Assembly (NCBI GenBank): GCA_043776515.1
Contig: JAYVRG010000050.1
Location: 138 to 64,137, forward strand
Source of the DNA: Phycisphaerales bacterium
GTDB lineage: Bacteria; Planctomycetota; Phycisphaerae; Phycisphaerales; UBA1924
Direction: 5' to 3'
DNA: 64,000 bases
The notes under the pieces were generated by a model, which was given only the letters and a program-made list of their open reading frames with translations, was not told where the DNA came from and did no database searches. Below are positions 8,566-64,000 of this stretch, piece after piece (positions within the stretch are counted from its first letter, which is position 1; every line of letters begins with the position of its first letter). The position numbers and the translations under genes were made by a program.

Positions 8566-8682
8566 GTGCCACGGGTTCGCCGCCGCTTTGGGCGGCAACC
8601 CGTGCGATGTTCGTTGGGCATCGTGCGCTCCCTTCGCGCATCACGGGTTGCCCGCTCAGGGCAGCGGGCGAACCCGTGGCAC
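8566..8682. mobile_element. Family-1 REPIN-like element (117 nt: two inverted REP hairpins plus a central small hairpin)
   Basis: The left arm is GTGCCACGGGTTCGCCgccgctttgGGCGGCAACCCGTG. The spacer has a TGCGC-tcccttc-GCGCA hairpin. The right arm is CACGGGTTGCCCgctcagggcagcGGGCGAACCCGTGGCAC. It is about 88 percent identical by eye to the reverse complement of 31638-31755. Confidence 0.85.
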
Positions 8683-24981: not shown

Positions 24982-25748
24982 ATATGCAACAGATTGCATT
25001 CTTCGCTGGAGTGGTCGCGGCATCGGCCGCGCTTGCTCAACAGCCGGAGGCGAAGCCCGCTGAGAAACCGGCGGAGAAGCCAGCGGCTGCGCCGAAGCCC
25101 GCGCCGCCACCGGCGCAGCCGTCACTTGATGATCTGCTGGGCATCAAGCCCAAGCCGGGCGACAAACCAGCAGCGACGATCACACCCACCAAGCCCGAAG
25201 ATTCATCCAGCACTCCCGACGGCGCGCCGGATCAATCGCGCGCCGATCTGGATCGCCTGCTCTCGGCGCAGGAAATCGGCGATGCCTTCAAGCAGGCGAT
25301 CGCGCTGATGGGCGATGCCTCCAAGCGGATGAACGAGCACGCGGACAATGGTTTGGGAACGCAGCGCGTGCAGGAGGATGTCGTCAAGCGGCTGGATCAA
25401 CTGCTCGCGAGTTTGGACAAACAGAAACAGCAGGGCGGTGATCCCAAGCCCGGGCCGAAGAATCAGGACTCGCAGCAGGAGCCGGGACCGTCCAAGCCCA
25501 AGCCCGGGCAGGGCCAAGGGCAACCCAAACCGCAGCCGGGCGGGGATGGGATGCAGCAACACGAGGGGCCGACGTTGCAGGAGGGGACGCTGAAGCCGGA
25601 ACTGGAATCCGCACGCGCGGCGTGGGGCTCGTTGCCCGCACGCATCCGCGCCATGCTGATGCAGGGAACCGAAGATCGCTTCAGCTCTCGCTACAAAGCG
25701 TTGACGCAGGAGTATTACAAGCGGCTCGCGGAGGAGAACAGCAAGTGA
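24978..25748 (+). CDS. Secreted Pro/Lys/Gln-rich low-complexity protein
   Basis: The ATG overlaps the upstream stop (ATGA at 24978-24981). Signal peptide MNMQQIAFFAGVVAASAALAQ is present, and the conserved-looking tail is SSRYKALTQEYYKRLAEE. Confidence 0.6.
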   Translation: MNMQQIAFFAGVVAASAALAQQPEAKPAEKPAEKPAAAPKPAPPPAQPSLDDLLGIKPKPGDKPAATITPTKPEDSSSTPDGAPDQSRADLDRLLSAQEIGDAFKQAIALMGDASKRMNEHADNGLGTQRVQEDVVKRLDQLLASLDKQKQQGGDPKPGPKNQDSQQEPGPSKPKPGQGQGQPKPQPGGDGMQQHEGPTLQEGTLKPELESARAAWGSLPARIRAMLMQGTEDRFSSRYKALTQEYYKRLAEENSK

Positions 25749-25750
25749 GC

Positions 25751-27181
25751 ATGCACGAAGATCAAACGCCTGATATTGATATTCGTGCCACGGGTTCTCA
25801 TGCCACGGGTTCGCCGCCGCTTTGGGCGGCAACCCGTGACAAGACCGATGGAGTCATTGGATATCGTGCGCTCACTTCGCGCAGCACGGGTTGCCCGCTC
25901 AAAGCAGCGGGCGAACCCGTGGCACGGGCGGCAACCCGTGCGGGGAACGATGGGGTCAAAGGTCGTCGTGCAGTCGCCGCGCGGAGCACGGGTTGCCCGG
26001 CGAAGCGCCGGGCGAACCCGTGGCACGGTCGAATCGTTGGCACGATTGCGATCTTGCTTGCCACGGTGGCTCACGCGCAGTTGCTGGACCCGACGGTGAA
26101 GCCGGAAGTCTCAACACTGCCGCCACTCGAATTGCCCAAGCCCGACGAGAAACCCGCGGCGACGAAACCCACTGCTCCGGGCGCGGCCGATCCGGTGCGC
26201 TCCGCGCAGAACAACGCCGCTGCCAACGAGATCACGCCGGAACTCGACGAGATTGTTTCCAATGGGCTTAAGTATCTCGTCTCGGATCAAGGGCCGGACG
26301 GCTCCTTCGGCCAGGGGCGCTACGGCAAGAACATCGCCGTGACCGCGCTCGCCTGCATTGCGCTGATGGCCGACGGAAACACGCCGGGGCGCGGGCGCTA
26401 CGGCAAGAACGTGCAGAAGGGTTTGGAGTTCGTGCTGGCGTCATCGACGGAGACCGGCCTGCTCGCGGCGGATTCCACCAACGGCCCAATGTACGGGCAC
26501 GGGTTCGCCGCGCTTTTTCTGGGCGAGGTGTACGGCATGACCAAGGGCGGCGGAGAGACGCCGCAATCCGCGAAGGTCCATGAGGCGCTCATCAAGGCGT
26601 GTACGTTGATCCAGCGCTCGCAGAACTCCGAGGGCGGCTGGCGCTACAACCCGGTGCCGTACGACGCGGACATCTCGGTGACCATCTGCCAGATCATGGC
26701 GCTGCGCTCGGCCCGCAACGCGGGGATCGAGGTGCCCAAGGAGACGATCGACAAGGCGATCGAGTACGTCAAGCAGTGCCAGAACTCCGATGGGGGATTC
26801 CGGTATCAGGCGTCGGCGGGCGTGTCGGCGTGGCCGCGCAGCGCGGCGGGCGTGGCGGCCCTCTACTACGCGGGCATCTATAAGGACGACGCGATTGACC
26901 GGGGTGTGAAGTATGTCAACGAGAGCGCGTTCCCGGGCAAGAATCAGGGCAACACCAGCGCGCATTATTTTTACGGCCAGTATTACTCGGTGCAGACGAT
27001 GTATCTCGCGGGCGGCGAGCCGTGGGCCAAGTGGTGGCCCGCGGTGCGCTCGGAACTGAAGAACAAGCAGCAGCCCGACGGCTCATGGGCGGACCCATCG
27101 GTGGGTCCGGCGTATGGCACGGCGATGGCGCTGATCGTTTTGCAAATGCCCAAGCGATTCTTGCCGATTTTCCAGAAGTGA
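25751..27181 (+). CDS. Prenyltransferase/squalene-cyclase-repeat (alpha/alpha toroid) protein with a repeat-derived N-terminal extension
   Basis: Repeats are PDGSFGQGRYGKN, NSEGGWRYNPVPYD, NSDGGFRYQASAG and QPDGSWADPSVG. The only in-frame ATG or GTG (25751, 25745) lies upstream of the REP cluster 25785-26026. The hydrophobic segment IVGTIAILLATVAHAQ follows at 26033. Confidence 0.7.
   Translation: MHEDQTPDIDIRATGSHATGSPPLWAATRDKTDGVIGYRALTSRSTGCPLKAAGEPVARAATRAGNDGVKGRRAVAARSTGCPAKRRANPWHGRIVGTIAILLATVAHAQLLDPTVKPEVSTLPPLELPKPDEKPAATKPTAPGAADPVRSAQNNAAANEITPELDEIVSNGLKYLVSDQGPDGSFGQGRYGKNIAVTALACIALMADGNTPGRGRYGKNVQKGLEFVLASSTETGLLAADSTNGPMYGHGFAALFLGEVYGMTKGGGETPQSAKVHEALIKACTLIQRSQNSEGGWRYNPVPYDADISVTICQIMALRSARNAGIEVPKETIDKAIEYVKQCQNSDGGFRYQASAGVSAWPRSAAGVAALYYAGIYKDDAIDRGVKYVNESAFPGKNQGNTSAHYFYGQYYSVQTMYLAGGEPWAKWWPAVRSELKNKQQPDGSWADPSVGPAYGTAMALIVLQMPKRFLPIFQK
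25785..26026. mobile_element. Cluster of family-1 REP/REPIN units (one partial hairpin, one full REPIN, one half REPIN)
   Basis: gtgccacgggttc (partial) comes first. The full unit spans 25800-25926, with spacer ggatatcgtgcgctcacttcgcgca. Then ggcggcaacccgtg...cacgggttgcccggcgaagcgccgggcgaacccgtggcac follows. Confidence 0.85.
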
Positions 27182-28658: not shown

Positions 28659-28777
28659 GTGCCACGGGTTCGTCCGCCGCGGCGGACAACCCGTGCTAGA
28701 ACGTGTGAGCACAAGGGTCTGTCACGCGTCTTTCGGGTCTTCATGGGTTGCCGCGAAGCGCGGCGAACCCGTGGCAC
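28659..28777. mobile_element. Family-1 REPIN-like element (119 nt, variant loops)
   Basis: GTGCCACGGGTTCGTCCGCCGCGGCGGACAACCCGTG ... ATGGGTTGCCGCGAAGCGCGGCGAACCCGTGGCAC lies between the convergent ends of the 27224 gene and mraY. Confidence 0.8.
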
Positions 28778-28800: not shown

Positions 28801-30000
28801 CTACCGCACCTTGACGAGCGCGAGCGCTGCCACCACCAGAATCGCGGTGATGATCCAGAACCGCGCGACCACCGTTTGCTCCGTCCAGCCGACAATGTGG
28901 AAGTGGTGGTGGATGGGCGCGACCTTGAAGAGCCGCTGACCGGTGCCGGTCTTTCTCCGGGTGTACTTGAAGTATCCGACCTGCAGCACCACGCTGGAAA
29001 TCTCTAGGATGAACACGCCGCTCATCAGCAGCAGGAGCAGTTCCTGGCGAATCACAACGGCGAGGTAGCCGAGCAGGCCGCCCAGCGCGAGCGAACCCGT
29101 GTCGCCCATGAAGACCTGCGCGGGCGAGCAGTTCCACCACAGAAAGCCCAGACAGGCCCCGGCGACGGCCGCGGCGAGAATGCACAGCTCATCCGCGTAT
29201 GCGATATACGGCATGCGAAGATACTGCGCCATGGTGTCCGCGCCGGCGATCGCCACCAGCACCAGCATCCCGAGCGAGACGATCGTCGTCGTGCCCGCCG
29301 CGAGGCCGTCCATGCCGTCGGTGATGTTCACGGCGTTGGACATGCCCGCGACCATCAGCATCGCGATGACAACGAAGAGCATCCGCGGCAGATACACCAG
29401 CGAATCGTTGATCGCCCAGCCACCCTGCTCGGTGCGCACCCAGGTCGCTTGAAACGGAACACTCACAACGTGCTGCAGCGCGCGATCCACCCCGGGCGTT
29501 TCGCCCTTCACATACAGGAACCAGCCGACCATCAACCCCAGGCCGAGCTGGAAGATCAGTTTTTCCCAGCCGTACAGCCCCTGTCGCGAGCCGCCGGGGC
29601 GCGACGCGGCGGTGAGTTTCAGCCAGTCATCAATCGACCCGAGCGCGGCGAGCCAGACCAGCACCACCAAGCCCATGATGACGTAAAACTCGCGGATGTC
29701 CGCGAGCAGCGCGGTGGATCCGAAGATCGCGGCGCAGATCAGCAGGCCGCCCATCGTCGGCACGTTCGCCTTGCTCTTGGCCGCGTCCTGGAGCAGCGCG
29801 GTATCGGCAAGGCCCGCGTCGCCGATCTTCTTGCGGCGCAGCCAGCGGATCACCGGCTTACCCGCGAGCAGGACAACGAAGAACGCCAGCGCGGCTGCGG
29901 CCAGGGCGCGGAACGAGAGCTGGTCCAGGATGCGGAACATCCACCAGACGCGATGGTCCTGCAGCCACGCACGAAAATGATCAATCAGAACGTAGAGCAT
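28801..30000 (-). CDS. mraY: Phospho-N-acetylmuramoyl-pentapeptide transferase
   Basis: NAVNITDGMDGLAAG, MGDTGSLALGGLLG and APIHHHF are present, with a 10-TM-like profile. Confidence 0.95.
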   Translation of the reverse strand: MLYVLIDHFRAWLQDHRVWWMFRILDQLSFRALAAAALAFFVVLLAGKPVIRWLRRKKIGDAGLADTALLQDAAKSKANVPTMGGLLICAAIFGSTALLADIREFYVIMGLVVLVWLAALGSIDDWLKLTAASRPGGSRQGLYGWEKLIFQLGLGLMVGWFLYVKGETPGVDRALQHVVSVPFQATWVRTEQGGWAINDSLVYLPRMLFVVIAMLMVAGMSNAVNITDGMDGLAAGTTTIVSLGMLVLVAIAGADTMAQYLRMPYIAYADELCILAAAVAGACLGFLWWNCSPAQVFMGDTGSLALGGLLGYLAVVIRQELLLLLMSGVFILEISSVVLQVGYFKYTRRKTGTGQRLFKVAPIHHHFHIVGWTEQTVVARFWIITAILVVAALALVKVR

Positions 30001-30012
30001 CGCACGCGGCCG

Positions 30013-31620
30013 TTATGCGGCCTGACTCTCCCCGCTTGCCCCGGCGCGCCCCACGCCGAGCAGTTCCGAAATCTGTGTGGTCTTCACTTCCACGCCGACC
30101 ATCCCCACACCCGTGGTCGGCTGCTCGGCTCTGGCACCATGTTTGCGGAGCGCGGCCACGACAAGTTCCAGCTTCACGCGGCGCGAGCCCTTCACCAGCG
30201 CGATGTCGCCCGGGCGCAGCATCGCGGCGATGTTCGCGGCGTGGTCGCCATCGGCGCTCTCGAACCAGCGGACGCGCGAGCCATCCCAGCCGCGCTCGTG
30301 CAGGGCTTTCTCTGCTTCTCGCATTCCTGCGCCGACCAGAACGGCCATGTCGATGCGAACATCATCGCCGCCCTCAGCGACGGCATCGGCAACGGCGCGG
30401 TGTCCGGCGGGCGCGCTGCTGCCCATTTCCAGCATCTCGCCGAGCACGACCACCGTGCGTCCGCCCGAGGCGATACCCGCTTTCTTGAGCGAGCAGAGCG
30501 TGCGGATGCCCGCGATCATTGAGTCGGGATTCGCGTTGTACGCATCGTTCAGGATGGTGATAGCGCTCGCACCATCGCCGATGCGATCGACGCTCAGCCG
30601 CATGTCCGCGCCGCCTGCGGTGAGCAGGGCATCGGTCGCCTTCTGATCGTCCACGCCCAACCGGCGCGCCACGGCGAGCGCGGCGATTGCGTTGAGCGCG
30701 TTGTGCTCTCCCACCAGCGGCATCTTGTACTTCTGGCGGGCGTTCACGGCGAAGCTCAGCCAGGCGCGCCCGTCTTGGATCTCGTGCTTCGCATCCGTCA
30801 GCCGCAGCGTCGCGTCCTGCTTGCGCCCGAATGTCACGAGGTTCTTCGCACACTTGAGGTGCTCGGTGAGTTCCGGCGCATCCGCCGTCGCGATCGCCCA
30901 CCCGGCGGGCTTGAGATACTTGAGAATCACGGCCTCTTCCGCCGCCACGCCCGCGAGATCGCCGAAGCCCTCGAGATGCTCGCGCCCGATGGATGTAATC
31001 ACCGCGATGTCCGGGCGAACGACCTCGGCGAGAATCTTGATCTCGCCCGGGTGATTCGTGCCGACCTCACAGATGAGGTATTGGTCGTTTTCCTTGGCCG
31101 CGAGGATGGTCAGCGGCACGCCGACGGCATTATTGAAACTCTTCTGGCTCGCCGTGCCGCGCATGGTTTTGCCGAGCAGGTGATCGACGAGCCGCGTGGT
31201 GGTGGTCTTGCCGTTGGAGCCGCAGATGGCGATCACCTTGGTGCGTTTGAGGGATTCCCGGTACGCGGCGGCGATCTTCAGCAGGGCCTTGCCGGTGTCG
31301 GCCACCTTCAACACGCCACAGCCGTTCAGGTCCGCGCCGGTCGGAATGCCAGCGACATCCTCAACCACCACCACCGGCGCGCCGGCGCGCACGGCGTCGG
31401 CCACGAACTTGTGGCCGTCGAAGTTCTCGCCGCGCAGCGCGATGAATATCTGCCCCTTGCGAATGGTGCGGCTGTCGGTATTGACGCCGATGATCGGCGC
31501 GTACAGGTCGGGCAGCGGCAGGTCGGCGGGGCGGTCTTTGGGCAACTCGATCTGCGCCGGGCGCACCACCCACGCTCCCCCGCTTGCGATACGAATGTTG
31601 TCCGGATTCCAGAACGGCAT
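30013..31620 (-). CDS. murF: UDP-N-acetylmuramoyl-tripeptide--D-alanyl-D-alanine ligase with a C-terminal extension
   Basis: VIAICGSNGKTTTTRL (P-loop), DAYNANPDSM and VKGSRRVKLE are present. About 40 extra C-terminal residues follow. Confidence 0.9.
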   Translation of the reverse strand: MPFWNPDNIRIASGGAWVVRPAQIELPKDRPADLPLPDLYAPIIGVNTDSRTIRKGQIFIALRGENFDGHKFVADAVRAGAPVVVVEDVAGIPTGADLNGCGVLKVADTGKALLKIAAAYRESLKRTKVIAICGSNGKTTTTRLVDHLLGKTMRGTASQKSFNNAVGVPLTILAAKENDQYLICEVGTNHPGEIKILAEVVRPDIAVITSIGREHLEGFGDLAGVAAEEAVILKYLKPAGWAIATADAPELTEHLKCAKNLVTFGRKQDATLRLTDAKHEIQDGRAWLSFAVNARQKYKMPLVGEHNALNAIAALAVARRLGVDDQKATDALLTAGGADMRLSVDRIGDGASAITILNDAYNANPDSMIAGIRTLCSLKKAGIASGGRTVVVLGEMLEMGSSAPAGHRAVADAVAEGGDDVRIDMAVLVGAGMREAEKALHERGWDGSRVRWFESADGDHAANIAAMLRPGDIALVKGSRRVKLELVVAALRKHGARAEQPTTGVGMVGVEVKTTQISELLGVGRAGASGESQAA

Positions 31621-31637: not shown

Positions 31638-31755
31638 GTGCCACGGGTTCGCGTGCTGCTCTGAGCGGGCAACCCGTGATGCGCGAAGCGAACGCACAAT
31701 ATCCAACGAACTCCCGCACGGGTTGCCGCCCAAAGCGGCGGCGAACCCGTGGCAC
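31638..31755. mobile_element. Family-1 REPIN-like element (118 nt) in the murE-murF intergenic spacer
   Basis: Its reverse complement aligns with 8566-8682 along the whole length, with the same two arms and the same central gcgcgaagcg...cgcac hairpin. Confidence 0.85.
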
Positions 31756-31800: not shown

Positions 31801-33729
31801 TCACCCGCCCAAAGCCAATGACGCGCCGGCGGTCATGTCTTCACCATCGTCGCGATCGTCGTCTGTTCGCGCGGCCGCCAGCTCACGGACGGCGATCCCA
31901 CGCTCACGCAGCGCGGCCCGGGCCACCTCGCGATCATCGAAATGCCGCGTGATTGTCGCCCCCTTCTTCGCCGGGTCGGGCAATATCTGATAGTCCTCGT
32001 GCCCCTTGCCCGCGATGATGATGGTGTCCCCCGGCTTGGCCGCGGTGATCGCCAACCGAATGGCCCGCTCGCGGTCGGGTTCCACGACGACACCTCCCGT
32101 GCCACGGGTTCGCCCGCTGCTTTGAGCGGGCAACCCGTGCTCCCCCGCACGCACACCCGCGAGTATCTCCTCGATAATCCCCCCCGCGTCCTCCGTCCGC
32201 GGATTGTCACTCGTCACCACCACCCGATCCGCCATCTCCGCCGCAACTTTGCCCATGCGCGGCCGCTTGGTCCGGTCCCGATCACCGCCGCACCCGAACA
32301 CACACCAAAGTTCGCCACCCGCGACACGCCCCGGCATCGGCCCGGTGCCGATAGCACTCGTGCCGCGGCCGAGGTCATGTTTCTCACTGGGTTCTGAAGC
32401 CGCGCGCCCCATCGCCCCGCGCAACACCCCCAGCACCGTCGCCAGCGCATCATCGGTGTGTGCGTAATCCACGAACACCTGGATCGGAGCCCCAATCGCC
32501 GTCACCGGCTCCAGCCGACCCGGCGGCGCGCTCGCCTTCTCCAGCGCGCCCGCGATGATCTCGAAGCTCAGGGCATCCTCATCCGTCCCACCCCAGAGCG
32601 CGTGTACCGTCGCCACCGCCTGCAGCGCGTTCATCACGTTGAACGCACCAACCAATGGCACGCGGCAGACACAGTGCCCCCACGGGCCCGTGAACTCCAC
32701 ATCCGTCCCTTCCGTCGTCGCACCCATGACCCGCGCGCGGCAGACGGTTTCGGGAGCGGTTCCGCCAACGATCGGAAGGGTGGCACTGGCAGCTTGCTGC
32801 CAGTGGTGCGTGCCTTGTGCTCCCGACACGGGCAGCAAGCTGCCCGTGCCACCCGATTCTGATCCCGTGCCACCCAATACTGATATGGATCCCTCCACCT
32901 TGCACCGCACCACCCGCACGCCCGACTTCATCCCCTTCACCATCCGCGAGTGCCCCGCGTCTTGGATGTTCACCACCGCCACGCCGTCTGTGGGGAGATG
33001 CTCAAACAGCATCGCCTTGGCCGCGGCGTATTCCTCCATGGTTTTGTGATAATCCAGATGGTCGCCGGTCAGATTCGTGAACACCGCCGCGTTCCAGTGC
33101 AGCGCGCCGACGCGCCGCTGGTGCAACGCATGGCTGGAAACCTCCATCACCGCCGCCTGACACCCAGCGTCGTGCATCCGCGCGAAGGTGCGGGAGATTT
33201 CCAGCGCGGGCGGCGTCGTCAGCAAGGCCGCGGCGGTCTCCACGCCGTCATCAATCACCACCGTGCCGATCAATCCACAGCGAATCCCCAGCGCGTTGAG
33301 CATCTGGTGGATGAGAAACGTCGTCGTCGTCTTCCCGTTGGTCCCCGTCACCCCGATCACCCGCATCTTCGAGCTCGGCTCGCCATAGAACCGCTCCGCC
33401 AGCCGCGCGATGGCGAGGTTGGTATCCGTCGCGGTCAGCAGCGCGACGCCCTGGGTGGCCCGCCGCTCCGCGGCGGCTCCCCTTTCCTGATCTGTCGCTC
33501 CCAACCGAAACCCCGGATCATCCGTGAGAATCGCCGCCGCGCCCGCCGCGATCGCCCCCGCCACAAACCCCTTCCCATCCACCTTCTCCCCCTTGCGGGC
33601 GATGAAGAGCGACCCGGGCATGACGGTACGGGAGTCCTCGGTGATATCGCACACGCGCAGGTTGCTCACCTCGTCGCCCGGGTTGACGATCCGGACATCG
33701 AGTCCGTGGATGAGGTCGGCGATCCGCAT
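31801..33729 (-). CDS. murE: UDP-N-acetylmuramoyl-L-alanyl-D-glutamate--2,6-diaminopimelate ligase carrying in-frame repeat insertions (643 aa, unusually long)
   Basis: VTGTNGKTTTTFL, DYAHTDDAL, GCGGDRDRTKRPRMG and AGKGHEDYQ are present. The start is set at MRIADLIHGLDV (33729). It contains the repeat elements at 32099-32139 and 32778-32875. Confidence 0.9.
   Translation of the reverse strand: MRIADLIHGLDVRIVNPGDEVSNLRVCDITEDSRTVMPGSLFIARKGEKVDGKGFVAGAIAAGAAAILTDDPGFRLGATDQERGAAAERRATQGVALLTATDTNLAIARLAERFYGEPSSKMRVIGVTGTNGKTTTTFLIHQMLNALGIRCGLIGTVVIDDGVETAAALLTTPPALEISRTFARMHDAGCQAAVMEVSSHALHQRRVGALHWNAAVFTNLTGDHLDYHKTMEEYAAAKAMLFEHLPTDGVAVVNIQDAGHSRMVKGMKSGVRVVRCKVEGSISVLGGTGSESGGTGSLLPVSGAQGTHHWQQAASATLPIVGGTAPETVCRARVMGATTEGTDVEFTGPWGHCVCRVPLVGAFNVMNALQAVATVHALWGGTDEDALSFEIIAGALEKASAPPGRLEPVTAIGAPIQVFVDYAHTDDALATVLGVLRGAMGRAASEPSEKHDLGRGTSAIGTGPMPGRVAGGELWCVFGCGGDRDRTKRPRMGKVAAEMADRVVVTSDNPRTEDAGGIIEEILAGVRAGEHGLPAQSSGRTRGTGGVVVEPDRERAIRLAITAAKPGDTIIIAGKGHEDYQILPDPAKKGATITRHFDDREVARAALRERGIAVRELAAARTDDDRDDGEDMTAGASLALGG
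32099..32139. repeat. Solo family-1 REP hairpin inside the murE coding sequence
   Basis: GTGCCACGGGTTCGCCCGCTGCTTTGAGCGGGCAACCCGTG is translated on the minus strand as ..EHGLPAQSSGRTRGT.. within ILAGVRAG-[insert]-GVVVEPDRERAI. Confidence 0.85.
32778..32875. mobile_element. Family-3 element (77 nt) plus an extra terminal fragment inside the murE coding sequence
   Basis: GGGTGGCACTGGCAGCTTGCTGCCAGTG...CACGGGCAGCAAGCTGCCCGTGCCACCC has the same architecture as 40883-40961. It is followed by a second CCCGTGCCACCC. Confidence 0.8.
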
Positions 33730-33831
33730 GAAACATCCTATCTCCGCTCCTGATTGGGGCCGCAACCGACCACAACGGTTCTTCACGACCGATATTGCAG
33801 CCACGTTCCGCCACCGCCCGATCCACACCGC

Positions 33832-35415
33832 ATGAGCCAGCTAGAATCGCAGCGTTTTTCGAGCATACGAGCCGGTTTTGCCATCGCGGCCCTCGCAACT
33901 GCGGCGGCCGTTCACGCGCAGCCGGGGGTGATCTATGCGGATGCGCACGCTCCGGCGGGCGGCAACGGCGCATCTTGGGCCACGGCGTTTCGGGATTTGC
34001 AAGATGCGATTGCGGCGGCGAATGCGGACCCCGATCACTACGTTGGAAGTCAGATACGTATAGCGCAGGGTATCTACACGCCTGATCGCGCCAGCGGCGA
34101 CCGGAGCATGGCCTTTACACCTTCCAGCGCAATTTCCCTTATGGGCGGATTTGCGGGACTTCTGGCCAGCAATCCCGATCAACGCGACACGAGCCGATTT
34201 GTGACTGTCTTGTCTGGAGACCTCGCCCGGAACGACGGCTCTGACTTCACAAACTACGAGGACAACTCTCGATGTATCGTTGATCTCAGCGACCAAGACC
34301 TCGCGGTACTCGATGGCGTGACAATCCGGGGCGGTTCTGCCCCTGAGTCGGACGATCCATTCGCAACGAGAGGTGTCGTTACGGGTGTGCGCAAGGCATC
34401 GAACGGCCAAGTGATTCAGAGAAATGTCATTCTGCATCGATGCCGACTCGAGCAGAATTTGGCCGGGCTTGGTACACCAATCGTTCGCGGTCCGATCGTC
34501 TTGATGTTCGATTGCAAAGTATTTGGAAACTCAACGATCGAGGCACCAACAGTGTTCGGAGCGACTCCGTTCCTGATCCGTTGCGAGTTTCGCGGGAATC
34601 GGGTTCGCTCAGTATTCGTCCCCGAGTTCTCGCCGGGACTCATCGGCGGAATGGTTGCGGATGCTTTCCCGATGCACGTCTTGACATGTCTCTTTGCCGA
34701 CAACCTCTGCGAGGGTCCCGGCGCGATTGTGTGCAATGGCTTTTCGACTTCGGAGATTTCGCACTGTACATTCGTGGCCCATCCGACGCTGCCACGCCCG
34801 GCGATCGCGGTGCTGCTTGGCTCTCGCATCTCGCTGCGAAACTGCGTCTTTGCGCCCGGAGGCGGCGCACCATACCCGTCGGCGTTTGTTCACGTCGCAG
34901 CGGCGCAGATATTCCAAGACGACATTGACTCTTCCAATCTATTCTCAAATGGCCAAAGTGGCATCTCGGTCACGTCGAGCCCATCTTTCCCAGTTTCTGT
35001 GCGAGCGGGCGATCCCGCGTTTGTGCTGCCCCGTGGTACCGACAACGATCCAGCAACTTGGCGAGACAACAACTATCACTTGCTGGCGAGTTCGCCCGCG
35101 ATCGACACCGCAGGCAGTTCAAATGAGTATCCATCGAATGACTATCGAGACTTGGATGGCACTTCACCTTTCGATGCACCAACGGTGGTCAACCACGGCA
35201 CGGGGCTGACTCCATATCTCGATCTGGGATGCTATGAGTTCACCGAACGTCTCTGTCCCGCCGACTTCAACGCCTCCGGCTCTCTGACTCCCGCCGACAT
35301 CTACGACTTCCTGAACGCCTGGCTCGCCGCAGACCCCCGCGCGGATTTCAATGGCTACGGCCTCAGCGCACAGGACATCTTCGACTTCCTCGGCGCATGG
35401 TTCGCTGGTTGCTGA
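33832..35415 (+). CDS. Secreted parallel-beta-helix-like protein with a C-terminal GC-type dockerin-like module
   Basis: Signal peptide MSQLESQRFSSIRAGFAIAALATAAAVHAQ is present. The C-terminus is CPADFNASGSLTPADIYDFLNAWLAADPRADFNGYGLSAQDIFDFLGAWFAGC. G+C is lower than in the core genes. Confidence 0.7.
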   Translation: MSQLESQRFSSIRAGFAIAALATAAAVHAQPGVIYADAHAPAGGNGASWATAFRDLQDAIAAANADPDHYVGSQIRIAQGIYTPDRASGDRSMAFTPSSAISLMGGFAGLLASNPDQRDTSRFVTVLSGDLARNDGSDFTNYEDNSRCIVDLSDQDLAVLDGVTIRGGSAPESDDPFATRGVVTGVRKASNGQVIQRNVILHRCRLEQNLAGLGTPIVRGPIVLMFDCKVFGNSTIEAPTVFGATPFLIRCEFRGNRVRSVFVPEFSPGLIGGMVADAFPMHVLTCLFADNLCEGPGAIVCNGFSTSEISHCTFVAHPTLPRPAIAVLLGSRISLRNCVFAPGGGAPYPSAFVHVAAAQIFQDDIDSSNLFSNGQSGISVTSSPSFPVSVRAGDPAFVLPRGTDNDPATWRDNNYHLLASSPAIDTAGSSNEYPSNDYRDLDGTSPFDAPTVVNHGTGLTPYLDLGCYEFTERLCPADFNASGSLTPADIYDFLNAWLAADPRADFNGYGLSAQDIFDFLGAWFAGC

Positions 35416-36440: not shown

Positions 36441-36690
36441 GGGTGGCACGGGCGGCTTGCCCGCCCACGGTGTTGCCCACCGGGCCACGGCTCACCGTGC
36501 CACGGGTTCGCCCGCTGCTTTGAGTGGTCTACCCGTGATGCGCGAAGCGAGTACACGATTCTCCGCGCTCCCACGCATCGCTTCCAACATCACGGGTTGC
36601 CCGGCGAAGCGCCGAGCGAACCCGTGGCACGTCCAAGTCGTGTTCTTGCGTGCCACGGGTTCGTCCGCCGCGGCGGACAACCCGTGGCAC
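36441..36690. mobile_element. Composite repeat cluster: family-3 half element, a full family-1 REPIN (36497-36630) and a solo perfect family-1 hairpin (36650-36690)
   Basis: The parts are GGGTGGCACGGGCGGCTTGCCCGCCC; GTGCCACGGGTTCGCCCGCTG...GAGCGAACCCGTGGCAC; and GTGCCACGGGTTCGTCCGCCGCGGCGGACAACCCGTGGCAC. Confidence 0.85.
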
Positions 36691-36755: not shown

Positions 36756-36781
36756 CGGGCGAGAGAGTGTTCGAGTCGAGT

Positions 36782-36806
36782 CCGCCGCGGAGCGGCGGGC
36801 CACCCA
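36782..36806. repeat. 25-nt hairpin repeat CCGCCGCGGAGCGGCGG-GCCACCCA
   Basis: It is identical at 24 of 25 positions to 39426-39450. Confidence 0.75.
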
Positions 36807-36810
36807 CGAA

Positions 36811-39391: not shown

Positions 39392-39450
39392 CATGGGCAG
39401 GATGCCCATGCCACGGACAAAAGAACCGCCGCGGAGCGGCGGACCACCCA
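39392..39450. repeat. Family-2 solo hairpin plus the CCGCCGCGGAGCGGCGG hairpin, upstream of murA
   Basis: CATGGGCAGGATGCCCATGCCACGG is identical to 60810-60834. CCGCCGCGGAGCGGCGGACCACCCA follows. Confidence 0.8.
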
Positions 39451-39504
39451 TTACAACCGACAGGGGCGGGGCGGTATCCTGAACACTCACGGAGGAGCGG
39501 CACC

Positions 39505-40882: not shown

Positions 40883-40961
40883 GGGTGGCACTGGCGGCTT
40901 GCCCGCCAGTGCTTGGGCGTCTGTTGCAACACCACGGGCGGGCAAGCCGCCCGTGCCACCC
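40883..40961. mobile_element. Family-3 element (79 nt)
   Basis: The sequence is GGGTGGCACTGGCGGCTTGCCCGCCAGTG cttgggcgtctgttgcaacac CACGGGCGGGCAAGCCGCCCGTGCCACCC. Confidence 0.8.
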
Positions 40962-60371: not shown

Positions 60372-61601
60372 ATGTCCGACCCATATCCCCTGCTGCTTCG
60401 CCCGGTGATCCTGGAAAAAGTCTGGGGTGGGCGCCGTCTGGAGTCGCTGGGCAAGACGCTGGAGATACCGGGCGCGAAGTACGGCGAGAGCTGGGAGCTT
60501 GCGGACATGGCCTCGACGAGCGCATCGGGCGCGGGGGGCGGCGCGGTGCGGACGCTGATTGCCAATGGGGAACTGCGCGGCAAGACGCTTGGGGATGCTC
60601 GCGCGGCGTGGGGCGCGGGGCTGCTGGGTCTGCGTGGCACGGGCGTCCCGCCCGTGGTCTTGGGTGGCACGGGCTTTCCAGCCCGTGTTTCTGGTGCGAG
60701 TAGTTCGACGCAGGCGGAACTCGGGGCGATCCGCCCCGAGCCCGCCGCGGCGGGCCACGAAGCAAATGAACATGGGCTGGAAAGCCCATGCCACGAAGCA
60801 GCCAAGGCACATGGGCAGGATGCCCATGCCACGGACTTTCCACTGCTCATCAAGTTTCTGGATGCCAGCGAGAATCTGAGCGTGCAGGTGCATCCGTCGC
60901 CGGAGTACGCCGCGTCGCGCGCGGGGGCGTTCCTGAAGACCGAGTGCTGGTACATCATTGACGCGGAGCCGGGGGCGGTCATCTATAAGGGTCTGCGGCC
61001 GGAGGTGACGCGCGAAGAGTTCTCACGGCTGGCGCGGTCGGGGGCGGCGGGCGGACGCGCTCTGGTGGACGCGATGGTCGCGCTACCCGCGGTGCCGGGA
61101 GAGTGTCACAATCTGCCCAGCGGCACGGTCCACGCGCTCGGCGCGGGCGTGCTGGTGGCGGAGGTGCAGACCCCGAGCGACACGACGTATCGGTTGTATG
61201 ACTGGGGACGCACGGGGCGGGCGCTGCATGTGGAGGAGTCGATCGCGTGCGCGAGTTTTCCGGGAGAGCCGGCGCACGCCGCGTTGCCGCGGGGGATGAC
61301 GGTGGCGCGGTGCGAACCGGGGAAGACATCGGCGCGGCTGGTGACGACGGAGTTTTTCACCGTGGATGAGTTGCGCCCGGCGGTGGGCGATGTGCTCTCG
61401 GTGGAAGCGATTCTCGGCGCGGGCGGTTCGTGCGTGGCGATCGTGGTGCTGGATGGAGAGTGCGAGCTTGTCGATGGGCGCGCGTTTCAGCCCGTCGCGC
61501 TCAAACGCGGCGACACCGCGCTGATTCCGGCGGGAATCGGGCCACAAACGCTGCTGGCGGCGGGGAGCGGGTTGCGCGTGCTCGCGGCACGGGTGGTGTG
61601 A
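60372..61601 (+). CDS. manA: Type I mannose-6-phosphate isomerase carrying a 67-codon in-frame repeat insertion
   Basis: PVILEKVWGG, GESWELAD, FPLLIKFLDASENLSVQVHP, KTECWYII, SGTVHALG and QTPSDTTYRLYDWGR are present. The insertion is at 60634-60834. Confidence 0.85.
   Translation: MSDPYPLLLRPVILEKVWGGRRLESLGKTLEIPGAKYGESWELADMASTSASGAGGGAVRTLIANGELRGKTLGDARAAWGAGLLGLRGTGVPPVVLGGTGFPARVSGASSSTQAELGAIRPEPAAAGHEANEHGLESPCHEAAKAHGQDAHATDFPLLIKFLDASENLSVQVHPSPEYAASRAGAFLKTECWYIIDAEPGAVIYKGLRPEVTREEFSRLARSGAAGGRALVDAMVALPAVPGECHNLPSGTVHALGAGVLVAEVQTPSDTTYRLYDWGRTGRALHVEESIACASFPGEPAHAALPRGMTVARCEPGKTSARLVTTEFFTVDELRPAVGDVLSVEAILGAGGSCVAIVVLDGECELVDGRAFQPVALKRGDTALIPAGIGPQTLLAAGSGLRVLAARVV
60634..60834. 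mobile_element. Family-2 MITE-like composite element (201 nt) inside the manA ORF
   Basis: The left end is GTGGCACGGGCGTCCCGCCCGTG followed by TGGCACGGGCTTTCCAGCCCGTG. The core at 60720-60758 is ctcggggcgatccgccccgag followed by cccgccgcggcgggccac. The right end is CATGGGCTGGAAAGCCCATGCCACG followed by CATGGGCAGGATGCCCATGCCACGG. Confidence 0.85.
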
Positions 61602-63247: not shown

Positions 63248-63330
63248 TAGCCCGGGGCGCAAGCCCCGGGGTCGGGCTACCCAGCAACCCCCTCGGCATT
63301 TGGGTTCCCAGCCCGCCAAGCGGGCGGCAC
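63248..63330. repeat. Left flanking two-hairpin module of the Y1 transposase gene
   Basis: tagCCCGGGGCgcaaGCCCCGGGg ... aGCCCGCcaaGCGGGCggcac is the reverse complement of 63845-63931 (22/24 and 20/21 matches at the two hairpins). Confidence 0.85.
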
Positions 63331-63340
63331 AAAGCCGCCG

Positions 63341-63835
63341 TCAATCCAGAAATCGTTCTTCAAAGTCGATCTCGTGCTTCCGATACAGAATCTCGATCTC
63401 TTGGCGACAACTCATGGACTTGTGATGCCTCTCCTGATCCGCGACATACCGACGCACATCTTCTTTGTTGGACATGCTCACCGAGAACGCGCCATATCCA
63501 TCCTGCCAGCCAAACGGATGTGATGCGTATGTCTCGTGCATCCATTTCGAGGAGTTGGACTTTACAACCCGCGCCAACTCCGCTTCAGCGACGGTCGGGT
63601 GTCGGTACGTAAACACATGGACATGATCCTCGACGCCGTTGATGAGCACAGGCACGCACTCGAGTTTCTTCAGAATGCCCGCCATGTACGCGTGCAGGCG
63701 CGGCTTGATCTCCGCGATAATCTGCGGCTCGCGGTGCTTGGTGGACCAGACGAAGTGCGTCAGCAAGCAGGTGTAGGAATCGCCCATGCGGACAGAATAG
63801 TGGAAGGGCCGCGTGATGTGCAAGGAAGGAATCAC
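63341..63835 (-). CDS. Y1/HUH transposase of the IS200/RayT (REP-associated tyrosine transposase) superfamily
   Basis: LLTHFVWSTKHREP, HUH motif EDHVHVF, Tyr block FGWQDGYGAFSVS and YVADQERHH are present. The maximal ORF starts at GTG 63835; ATG 63787 (MGDSYTCLL) is the likelier start. Confidence 0.85.
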   Translation of the reverse strand: MIPSLHITRPFHYSVRMGDSYTCLLTHFVWSTKHREPQIIAEIKPRLHAYMAGILKKLECVPVLINGVEDHVHVFTYRHPTVAEAELARVVKSNSSKWMHETYASHPFGWQDGYGAFSVSMSNKEDVRRYVADQERHHKSMSCRQEIEILYRKHEIDFEERFLD

Positions 63836-63844
63836 ACGGTCTGT

Positions 63845-63931
63845 GTGCCGCCCGCTTCGCGGGCTTGATGCACGCGCGTGCGTATGAACATGGGCGAAAC
63901 CTACTACCCCCGGGGCTGACGCCCCGGGCTA
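63845..63931. repeat. Right flanking two-hairpin module of the Y1 transposase gene
   Basis: gtgccGCCCGCttcGCGGGCt ... cCCCGGGGCtgacGCCCCGGGcta is inverted relative to 63248-63330. Confidence 0.85.
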
Positions 63932-64000
63932 CGATTGTTTCGGCCGCGATGCGGCCTGCAAATCAGCAAAACAACAGACTCCGGCTCCAATCACGCCCGA

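Follow-up and report, generated by a model that had tools for sequence, protein, structure and literature searches.

Palindromic repeats of the REP type probably occupy surface loops of an intact murE gene in a Phycisphaerales bacterium

The window analyzed here, a stretch of 64,000 nucleotides from a Phycisphaerales bacterium (GenBank assembly GCA_043776515.1, contig JAYVRG010000050.1, positions 138 to 64,137), contains a murE gene that raises a simple question: how do palindromic repeats come to lie within the reading frame of an essential cell-wall gene? A sequence-only reading of this DNA had described two such repeats in murE and had proposed that they reflect repeated insertion into coding DNA, filtered by selection for frame-preserving events. 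On the evidence presented below, we consider it probable (about 85%) that this is a working murE whose surface loops have been colonized by the genome's own repeats of the REP (repetitive extragenic palindromic) or REPIN type, which landed there repeatedly and are translated.

The gene occupies positions 31801..33729 of the reverse strand (642 codons plus the stop), within a longer open reading frame (ORF; 31801-33828, reverse strand) whose true start is the ATG at 33729. The length of 643 residues given earlier was thus too high by one; the database protein P0001 is identical to the window's MurE and has 642 amino acids. Assignment to the UDP-MurNAc-tripeptide synthetases of the mDAP (meso-diaminopimelate) type is based on the ORF, on Pfam, NCBIfam and PDB searches, and on an AlphaFold2 model. 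Three Pfam domains, Mur_ligase (PF01225), Mur_ligase_M (PF08245) and Mur_ligase_C (PF02875), each scored over the cut-off, the NCBIfam model TIGR01085 (murE) gave 452 bits against a cut-off of 257, and comparison with PDB sequences returned MurE proteins with E-values down to 4e-76. The motifs that had been reported as intact are all found in the translation: the P-loop GTNGKTT, DYAHTDDAL, GCGGDRDRTKRPRMG and AGKGHEDYQ, together with TSDNPRTE. Both GTNGKTT and TSDNPRTE are invariant in all 118 MurE homologues aligned, and the DNPR motif contained in the latter is a mark of mDAP-adding enzymes. The gene order murE-murF (30013-31620)-mraY (28801-30000) is identical in all relatives examined; those MurE homologues for which a source is named are annotated as Phycisphaerales or Phycisphaeraceae metagenome-assembled genomes (MAGs).

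The AlphaFold2 model, built from the 118-sequence alignment, is confident as a whole (mean predicted local distance difference test, pLDDT, 85.9; predicted TM-score, pTM, 0.87), with a core above pLDDT 90, and low confidence is restricted to residues 281-318, 450-468, ~531-540 and ~81-90 and to the C-terminal tail. In Foldseek comparisons, the model matched the solved MurE structures 2XJA, 1E8C and 4BUB with TM-scores of 0.87-0.91, normalized to the target length. The ratio of nonsynonymous to synonymous divergence (dN/dS) of the window's murE is 0.14-0.16 against its three nearest full-length relatives (P0002, P0003 and P0004; 85-87% identical), and 0.11 (dN 0.024, dS 0.223) over 523 core codons against the closest relative of all, designated L089 (ENA ERZ28573558 scaffold_146664). 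In the loops, 17 of 21 residues (loop N), 21 of 40 (loop A) and 16 of 24 (loop B) differ between the window and L089; the core is thus conserved, and the peptides of the inserts can vary freely. By its sequence, this murE is an intact mDAP-type Mur ligase gene with a core under purifying selection. An intein or other self-excising insert was considered and rejected, as Pfam detects Mur ligase domains alone and the inserts, at 13-38 amino acids, are of low complexity.

The earlier observation that this MurE is longer than usual agrees with the alignment to E. coli MurE, whose gaps fall exactly at the insert positions of the window. The first of these, insert B, is a solo family-1 REP hairpin at 32099..32139 (reverse strand), exactly where the sequence-only reading had placed it. 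It is read as residues H531-T544 (HGLPAQSSGRTRGT) and lies in a C-terminal domain loop, between the helix 515-532 and the strand 547-549, where pLDDT dips to 57 across residues 531-540. An exact copy of the 41-nt hairpin (0 mismatches) lies about 6 kb off at 25885..25925 on the forward strand, surrounded by unrelated sequence and forming part of a REP cluster (25785-26027). Near copies occur at 8642, 31638 and 36497; chance alone would yield 0 matches. Folded as a single strand, the hairpin has an energy of -28.9 kcal/mol (z -3.6 against shuffled sequence). In 98 of the 118 homologues the site B loop has 10 residues; in the window's protein it has 23, and the insert, which amounts to a net gain of 39 nt over the relatives, is missing from P0002-4 and P0006-9.

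Insert A is larger: in the codon alignment, 114 nt (32779..32892, reverse strand; G280-T317) take the place of 12 nt that code for MPGA in relatives, so that the gene is longer by a net 102 nt. It lies in the loop that joins strands 272-279 and 329-337, close to the end of the middle domain, and pLDDT is below 50 at residues 281-318. Its core (32778..32854, reverse strand) is a REPIN-like doublet of two small inverted palindromes, GGGTGG-CACGGGCAGC..GCTGCCCGTG ... CACTGGCAGC..GCTGCCAGTG-CCACCC, whose arms (32778-32805 and 32827-32854) form a 28-nt inverted repeat with 93% complementarity. This family-3 element folds at -66.5 kcal/mol (z -6.4 against shuffled sequence), and can be aligned both with the forward-strand copy at 40883..40961, located between the EPSP synthase and DUF3052 genes, and with an element in the murE of P0006; the architecture shared with the intergenic copy, as proposed earlier, is thereby borne out. 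Further family-3 copies occur in relatives' loci. Next to the doublet, a 21-nt in-frame tandem duplication (32843..32884, reverse strand; direct repeat D1, 32843-32863 and 32864-32884, 90% identical) is read as SVLGGTG and SESGGTG, and spans the 5' terminus of the family-3 element (in gene sense) with 9 flanking nt. Among the 118 homologues, the most frequent length of the site A loop is 22 residues, and only three exceed 50: the window's protein (56), P0006 (61) and P0010 (57). All three long loops are encoded by GGGTGGCAC-type DNA.

Both elements described earlier are therefore real and keep the murE frame, which continues unbroken through their flanks; they are not the only ones. A third in-frame repeat lies in a loop of the N-terminal domain (33451..33480, reverse strand), where a hairpin, GCCGCCGC-GGA-GCGGCGGG followed by CCACCCAG, is read as G84-Q93 (GAAAERRATQ) and residues 81-90 have a pLDDT of 58. 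Near-identical copies at 36778-36807 and 39422-39451 contribute to 4 matches against 0.25 expected. At the same position, relatives carry hairpins that keep the GGA loop and the ACCCAG tail and differ in their stems (CCCGGTTC/GAACCGGG, CCCGGCTC/GAGCCGGG and CTCCACGC/GCGTGGAG). Across eight copies, five of the eight stem pairs have changed on both sides, 96.9% of cells are paired, and no shuffle equalled the covariation score. In addition, one block of 13 aa in this loop (GSPALRAGSGGSP...) sets apart the MurE proteins P0121 and P0002, whose identity is otherwise about 97%. The block corresponds to a hairpin also present in P0005 and P0006; at the sequence level, this difference is a recent presence or absence of the repeat within murE. 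An older insert, finally, lies in a linker (32326..32382, reverse strand; residues ~450-468, GRGTSAIGTGPMP... ahead of LWCVFGCGGDRD), with pLDDT below 50 at 450-468. It is common to several relatives and missing from P0004 and P0008, and no further copy of it exists within the window, where it is not a repeat.

Every insert falls between secondary-structure elements predicted in the AlphaFold2 model. The earlier idea of a frame filter stands at its core and needs one correction. Read directly off the sequence, the family-1 hairpin is free of stops in five of its six frames; the filter would therefore act chiefly on a length that is a multiple of three, as in the net gains of 39 and 102 nt.

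The repeats in murE belong to populations dispersed over the window. Thirteen family-1 hairpins are present, mostly as inverted doublets in spacers (8566-8682, 28659-28773, 31638-31755 and 36497-36690), with the murE copy standing alone. The doublet of the murE-murF spacer (31638..31755, reverse strand) folds at -82.8 kcal/mol and is also found in the relatives' loci L085, L088 and L089. Family 1, family 3 and the N-loop family are all short, dispersed, multicopy palindromes, as REPs and REPINs are, and the elements are mostly extragenic and often paired in inverted orientation, the pair making up one larger hairpin. Their tags are other than the GTAG or CGTC of known REPs: family 1 has GTGC/GCAC, while family 3 and the N-loop family have GTGG/CCAC, and GTAG-like ends occur only on other hairpins, beside a transposase gene described below. 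As regards miniature inverted-repeat transposable elements, family 3 has inverted arms of 28 nt, and a target-site duplication is not recognizable at the murE junctions. A metagenome scan for the family-1 REP returned two contigs only, each with an apparently intergenic solo copy.

Comparison with relatives, which had also been suggested earlier, reveals both presence and absence of each insert. P0002, P0003 and P0004 have neither insert A nor insert B; conservation of the extra segments in distant lineages, which would have spoken for an old protein feature, was not found. In L089, all three loops are likewise occupied, by inserts with different hairpin bodies. At its site B there is a perfect hairpin, CACCACCTTGCC-CAGAGC-GGCAAGGTGGTG-GCAC, with a 12-bp stem; this hairpin is 7 nt shorter than the one in the window and shares its loop and its 3' junction (GTGGCACGGGA). 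The whole region has 117 nt, the same total as in the window, with changes in flank length restoring the frame. At its site A, the 3' half of the family-3 element is shared and the 5' half is replaced by a doublet resembling family 1. In P0005, murE contains that genome's own family-1 variant (CACCGG...), in the same orientation and frame (HRLPGQSTGRTGGT), in the linker and not at site B, and P0006 and P0010 have different family-3-like inserts at site A. Each intragenic copy resembles the extragenic copies of its own genome. Elements that were inserted, replaced or converted time and again, with the frame restored by selection on each occasion, would produce such a pattern.

The uninterrupted sites themselves resemble the repeats to some extent. 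In P0002 and P0003, site A (TGCCCGTGACGGG) is the best-scoring window of the gene against the family-3 element, and in P0003, site B (GCGGCGGGCCGAACC) is the best-scoring window and resembles a REP 3' arm. In whole-gene window scoring, which bears on homology-directed insertion, neither site scored best in P0004, nor did site B in P0002. The codons for PGALPVTGG (CCGGGTGCGTTGCCCGTGACGGGCGGG; ~10640-10670 of L081, which is site A of the P0002 murE, and the equivalent in L088) contain a small palindrome, GCCCGTGACGGGC, similar to the family-3 stems inserted there in three lineages. Hairpin mimicry or microhomology may create insertion hot spots, which we regard as a lead and not as a result.

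A possible source of mobility lies near the end of the window. The gene at 63341..63835 (reverse strand) encodes an IS200-like Y1 (HuH) transposase of 164 amino acids (Pfam PF01797, E 1e-21; NCBIfam NF033573, 68 bits), with PDB matches to IS200/IS605 TnpA. It lies between inverted 20-nt hairpins, GCCCGC-CAA-GCGGGC-GGCAC (63311-63330) and GTGCC-GCCCGC-TTC-GCGGGC (63845-63864), which have the GCCCGC/GCGGGC stem and the GCAC tag in common with family 1. Farther out are hairpins with GTAG-like ends (~63248-63283 and ~63903-63932). The G+C content of the gene is below that of its neighbors, and the arrangement is REPtron-like. On the strength of the shared motifs, this protein is a candidate RAYT (REP-associated tyrosine transposase) for the family-1 repeats.

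Taken together, these data would be explained if at least three elements of three families, namely a solo hairpin of family 1, an inverted doublet of family 3 and a hairpin that has a GGA loop and a CCACCC tail, had entered tolerant loops between conserved secondary-structure elements of MurE. Insertion could be carried out by a RAYT-like Y1 transposase acting on single-stranded hairpins, or could result from repeat-templated repair. The survivors would be those events with a net length that is a multiple of three and without stops; as only frame-keeping, stop-free events would survive, the inserts are presumably translated, into probably disordered loops rich in Gly, Ser, Thr and Arg that would leave the ligase core undisturbed. 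Thereafter, turnover of the intragenic copies would continue along with that of the repeats outside genes. We infer that the inserts are translated and near neutral.

Several points weigh against this explanation. It is frame maintenance that suggests translation of the inserts, and the strong covariation of the N-loop hairpins could mean that the structures are selected, in which case a description of the inserts as neutral passengers may be incomplete. The transposase scores as a generic IS200/IS605 protein, and is only a candidate RAYT for these hairpins. No target-site duplication is recognizable at the murE insert junctions, and the junction of insert B is ambiguous, with 41 nt gained and 2 nt lost or some other path, its exact position being blurred by the divergence of the flanks. 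Furthermore, P0001 comes from the same single contig as the window, whose assembly it therefore does not independently confirm. Lastly, the murE of L089 has an in-frame TGA (~1345-1347) for the Leu codon of RVPLVGAFN, and is for this reason called as two ORFs. The TGA could be a sequencing or assembly error or a real inactivation of an insert-bearing murE; if it is real, insert-laden copies of murE can decay.

Of the other explanations, one deserves some attention although we consider it unlikely: the hairpins would be retained for their nucleic-acid structure, through ribosome pausing, mRNA stability, the murE/murF ratio or recognition by a transposase, and the peptides would be incidental. 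The compensatory changes described above, by which N-loop stems differ between species and remain complementary, argue for it, as do the different but perfect 12-bp stem at site B of L089, with its loop and 3' junction unchanged, and the high stability of the murE structures (-29 to -66 kcal/mol). However, the intragenic copies match the extragenic variants of their own genome, a match explicable without local selection, since replacement or conversion by the current repeats suffices. Moreover, close relatives manage well although they lack the hairpins, copies of these elements are present in spacers and in unrelated genes as well, and scans of murE gave no terminator- or promoter-like site and no Rfam family. 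The Rfam search returned only plant miRNA-precursor models below threshold, on the long hairpin, and a reading of the murE hairpins as terminators was rejected, as the promoter and terminator scan yielded nothing meaningful. That the long loops are instead ancestral in MurE, were deleted in relatives and only secondarily resemble repeats is the least probable of the alternatives, and can be set aside almost entirely. L089 does share the location of its inserts, in all three loops, and the 3' half of the family-3 element at site A, so that part of the insert history is inheritance. Nevertheless, short forms prevail among the 118 homologues and in E. coli, the uninterrupted E-MPGALPVTGG-TAPETV recurs in outgroups, and one insert has a copy of 100% identity in unrelated sequence 6 kb off.

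Two further possibilities concern the state of the gene and of the assembly, and both appear very improbable. Since the DNA comes from a MAG, since repeats classically lead to mis-assembly and since a single contig supports the exact protein, the inserts might be artefacts of assembly or binning, that is, repeat-induced mis-joins in the contig. Yet both inserts are in frame, with flanks that continue murE, comparable in-frame inserts are found in independently assembled contigs from ENA, JGI, NCBI and Logan, and the elements (41 and 77 nt) are probably below the k-mer length of such assemblies. Alternatively, this murE could be a decaying copy, with an intact paralogue working elsewhere, as the sequence-only reading had itself envisaged. 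The dN of the window lineage is indeed raised (0.088-0.105, against 0.053-0.070 for pairs among P0002-4), and the stop in L089 points in the same direction. However, dN/dS stays at 0.11-0.16 with invariant catalytic motifs, the murE-murF-mraY context is canonical, the core of the AlphaFold2 model is confident, and no second MurE-type Mur ligase was detected within the 64-kb window among the ORFs and Pfam matches surveyed, which cover part of its genes. Decay of this copy is accordingly unsupported, and insertion of resident repeats into a working murE remains the explanation that we prefer.

In the sequence-only reading, manA and the gene at 25751 had been put forward as further cases. The first is a valid second example of repeats inside coding DNA. 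In ManA (60372-61601, with its true start at 60372; 409 aa), GLLG and DFPLLIKFLD are separated by a loop of ~70 aa, compared with 10-13 aa in distant relatives and ~37 aa in close ones. Elements lie at ~60634-60690 and ~60810-60835, and several GTGGCAC/CCAC-tagged hairpins of the loop are read in frame, for example as HGLESPCHE. Relatives have other repeat-coded peptides in this loop, among them PGLESRGTQ of P0131, which resembles the MurE N-loop peptide. The second case is ambiguous. The ORF from 25745 has an overlapping GTG start, in a context (AAGTGAGC) that is the same in its orthologue in L081, and encodes a prenyltransferase/SQHop-cyclase-like protein with a conserved signal peptide, preceded by the REP cluster 25785-26027. 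It is open for ~95 codons through that cluster, which may be translated. Apart from the GTG, in-frame starts occur only at 25919 and 26054, and there is no other plausible one between the GTG at 25745 and the conserved signal peptide. In relatives, the two genes overlap by 4 nt and have no spacer.

Two other observations concern neighboring genes. The EPSP synthase ORF has 503 aa compared with 452 in relatives, and its 5' extension contains one hairpin from each of two families (CATGGGCAGGATGCCCATGCCACGGA and CCGCCGCGGAGCGGCGGACCACCCA) at 39392-39451; these hairpins are probably part of an untranslated leader, and could push the start-codon call too far upstream. Between murE and a GDSL lipase gene, which adjoin in relatives, lies an ORF of 553 aa (33754-35415, forward strand) with zero Pfam matches, which failed the coding filter based on G+C content at third codon positions. 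Its C-terminus has paired Cys residues and a FN..G..D..DF-type motif, which we take to be reminiscent of dockerin-like anchors. This ORF may be a lineage-specific acquisition or no gene at all.

In-frame palindromic inserts are already known, as intragenic REPs and as palindromic elements of Rickettsia, and are rarely documented; the present murE is notable because a single essential gene has been entered by three families and because its loops were hit repeatedly in sister lineages. The GTAG/CGTC REPs are palindromes of 20-40 nt, present in many copies, mostly extragenic and often arranged as inverted dimers (Di Nocera et al., 2013; PMC3733652). Some of them lie wholly within ORFs of known proteins, as single or dimeric units that encode ~10-30 amino acids, and placement in flexible loops was proposed (PMC3733652). 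The highest counts were reported in Opitutus terrae, of the PVC superphylum, and in Rickettsia conorii; Phycisphaerales or Phycisphaerae are not named in that article, and murE was not found in its supplementary text (PMC3733652). The murE elements are likewise short, multicopy palindromes, solo or in inverted doublets and in part intragenic, but differ in their tags (GTGC/GCAC and GTGG/CCAC instead of GTAG/CGTC), in the three families that meet in one essential gene, and in the loops hit repeatedly in sister lineages.

The Rickettsia palindromic elements (RPEs), as summarized in PMC10969869, are selfish palindromes found in frame in unrelated housekeeping genes and translated (Ogata et al., 2000, 2002), at positions predicted to agree with both fold and function of the proteins that receive them. 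RPEs measure ~100-150 bp, have conserved peptides and belong to reduced, obligate intracellular genomes. In contrast, the murE elements are of 26-77 nt, G+C-rich and REP-like, with unconserved peptides, in a host that is presumably free-living. The likeness is an analogy only, as the insert peptides of murE differ between close relatives and the comparison is made by description; a relationship in sequence is not expected. With the REPIN-RAYT system (Bertels and Rainey, 2011; PMC3116915), the repeats of the window have in common the pairing of inverted units into one larger hairpin (seen in family 3 and in the spacer doublets of family 1), and its single-copy Y1 transposase gene flanked by related hairpins has a possible counterpart in the hairpin-flanked Y1 gene described above. 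The differences are that some copies here are coding and that the link between transposase and family is drawn from shared motifs. To our knowledge, REPINs as described are essentially extragenic.

A bolder proposal, which we regard as rather doubtful, is that a few loops of MurE, and at least one of ManA, are recurrent landing pads for repeats in this Phycisphaerales clade. The intragenic REPs would remain active within the genome's repeats, undergoing replacement or conversion at the same time as the extragenic copies, with the frame always restored, and native codons resembling a REP hairpin, such as GCCCGTGACGGGC encoding PVTG at site A, would perhaps attract them. If this were true, the RAYT/REP system would keep generating loop diversity in the essential proteins of a bacterium that presumably lives freely, and hairpins would be preserved as structures within coding sequence.

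In the Phycisphaerae (Planctomycetota), such inserts are not known to have been described before. In practical terms, odd protein lengths in MAGs of this kind are not necessarily annotation errors, and repeat-coded segments can mislead both homology-based annotation and start-codon calls. More generally, the murE studied here suggests that selfish palindromes can lengthen an essential cell-wall enzyme, itself a drug target, without breaking its function, and the relatives with and without each insert constitute a natural experiment on how proteins gain loops.

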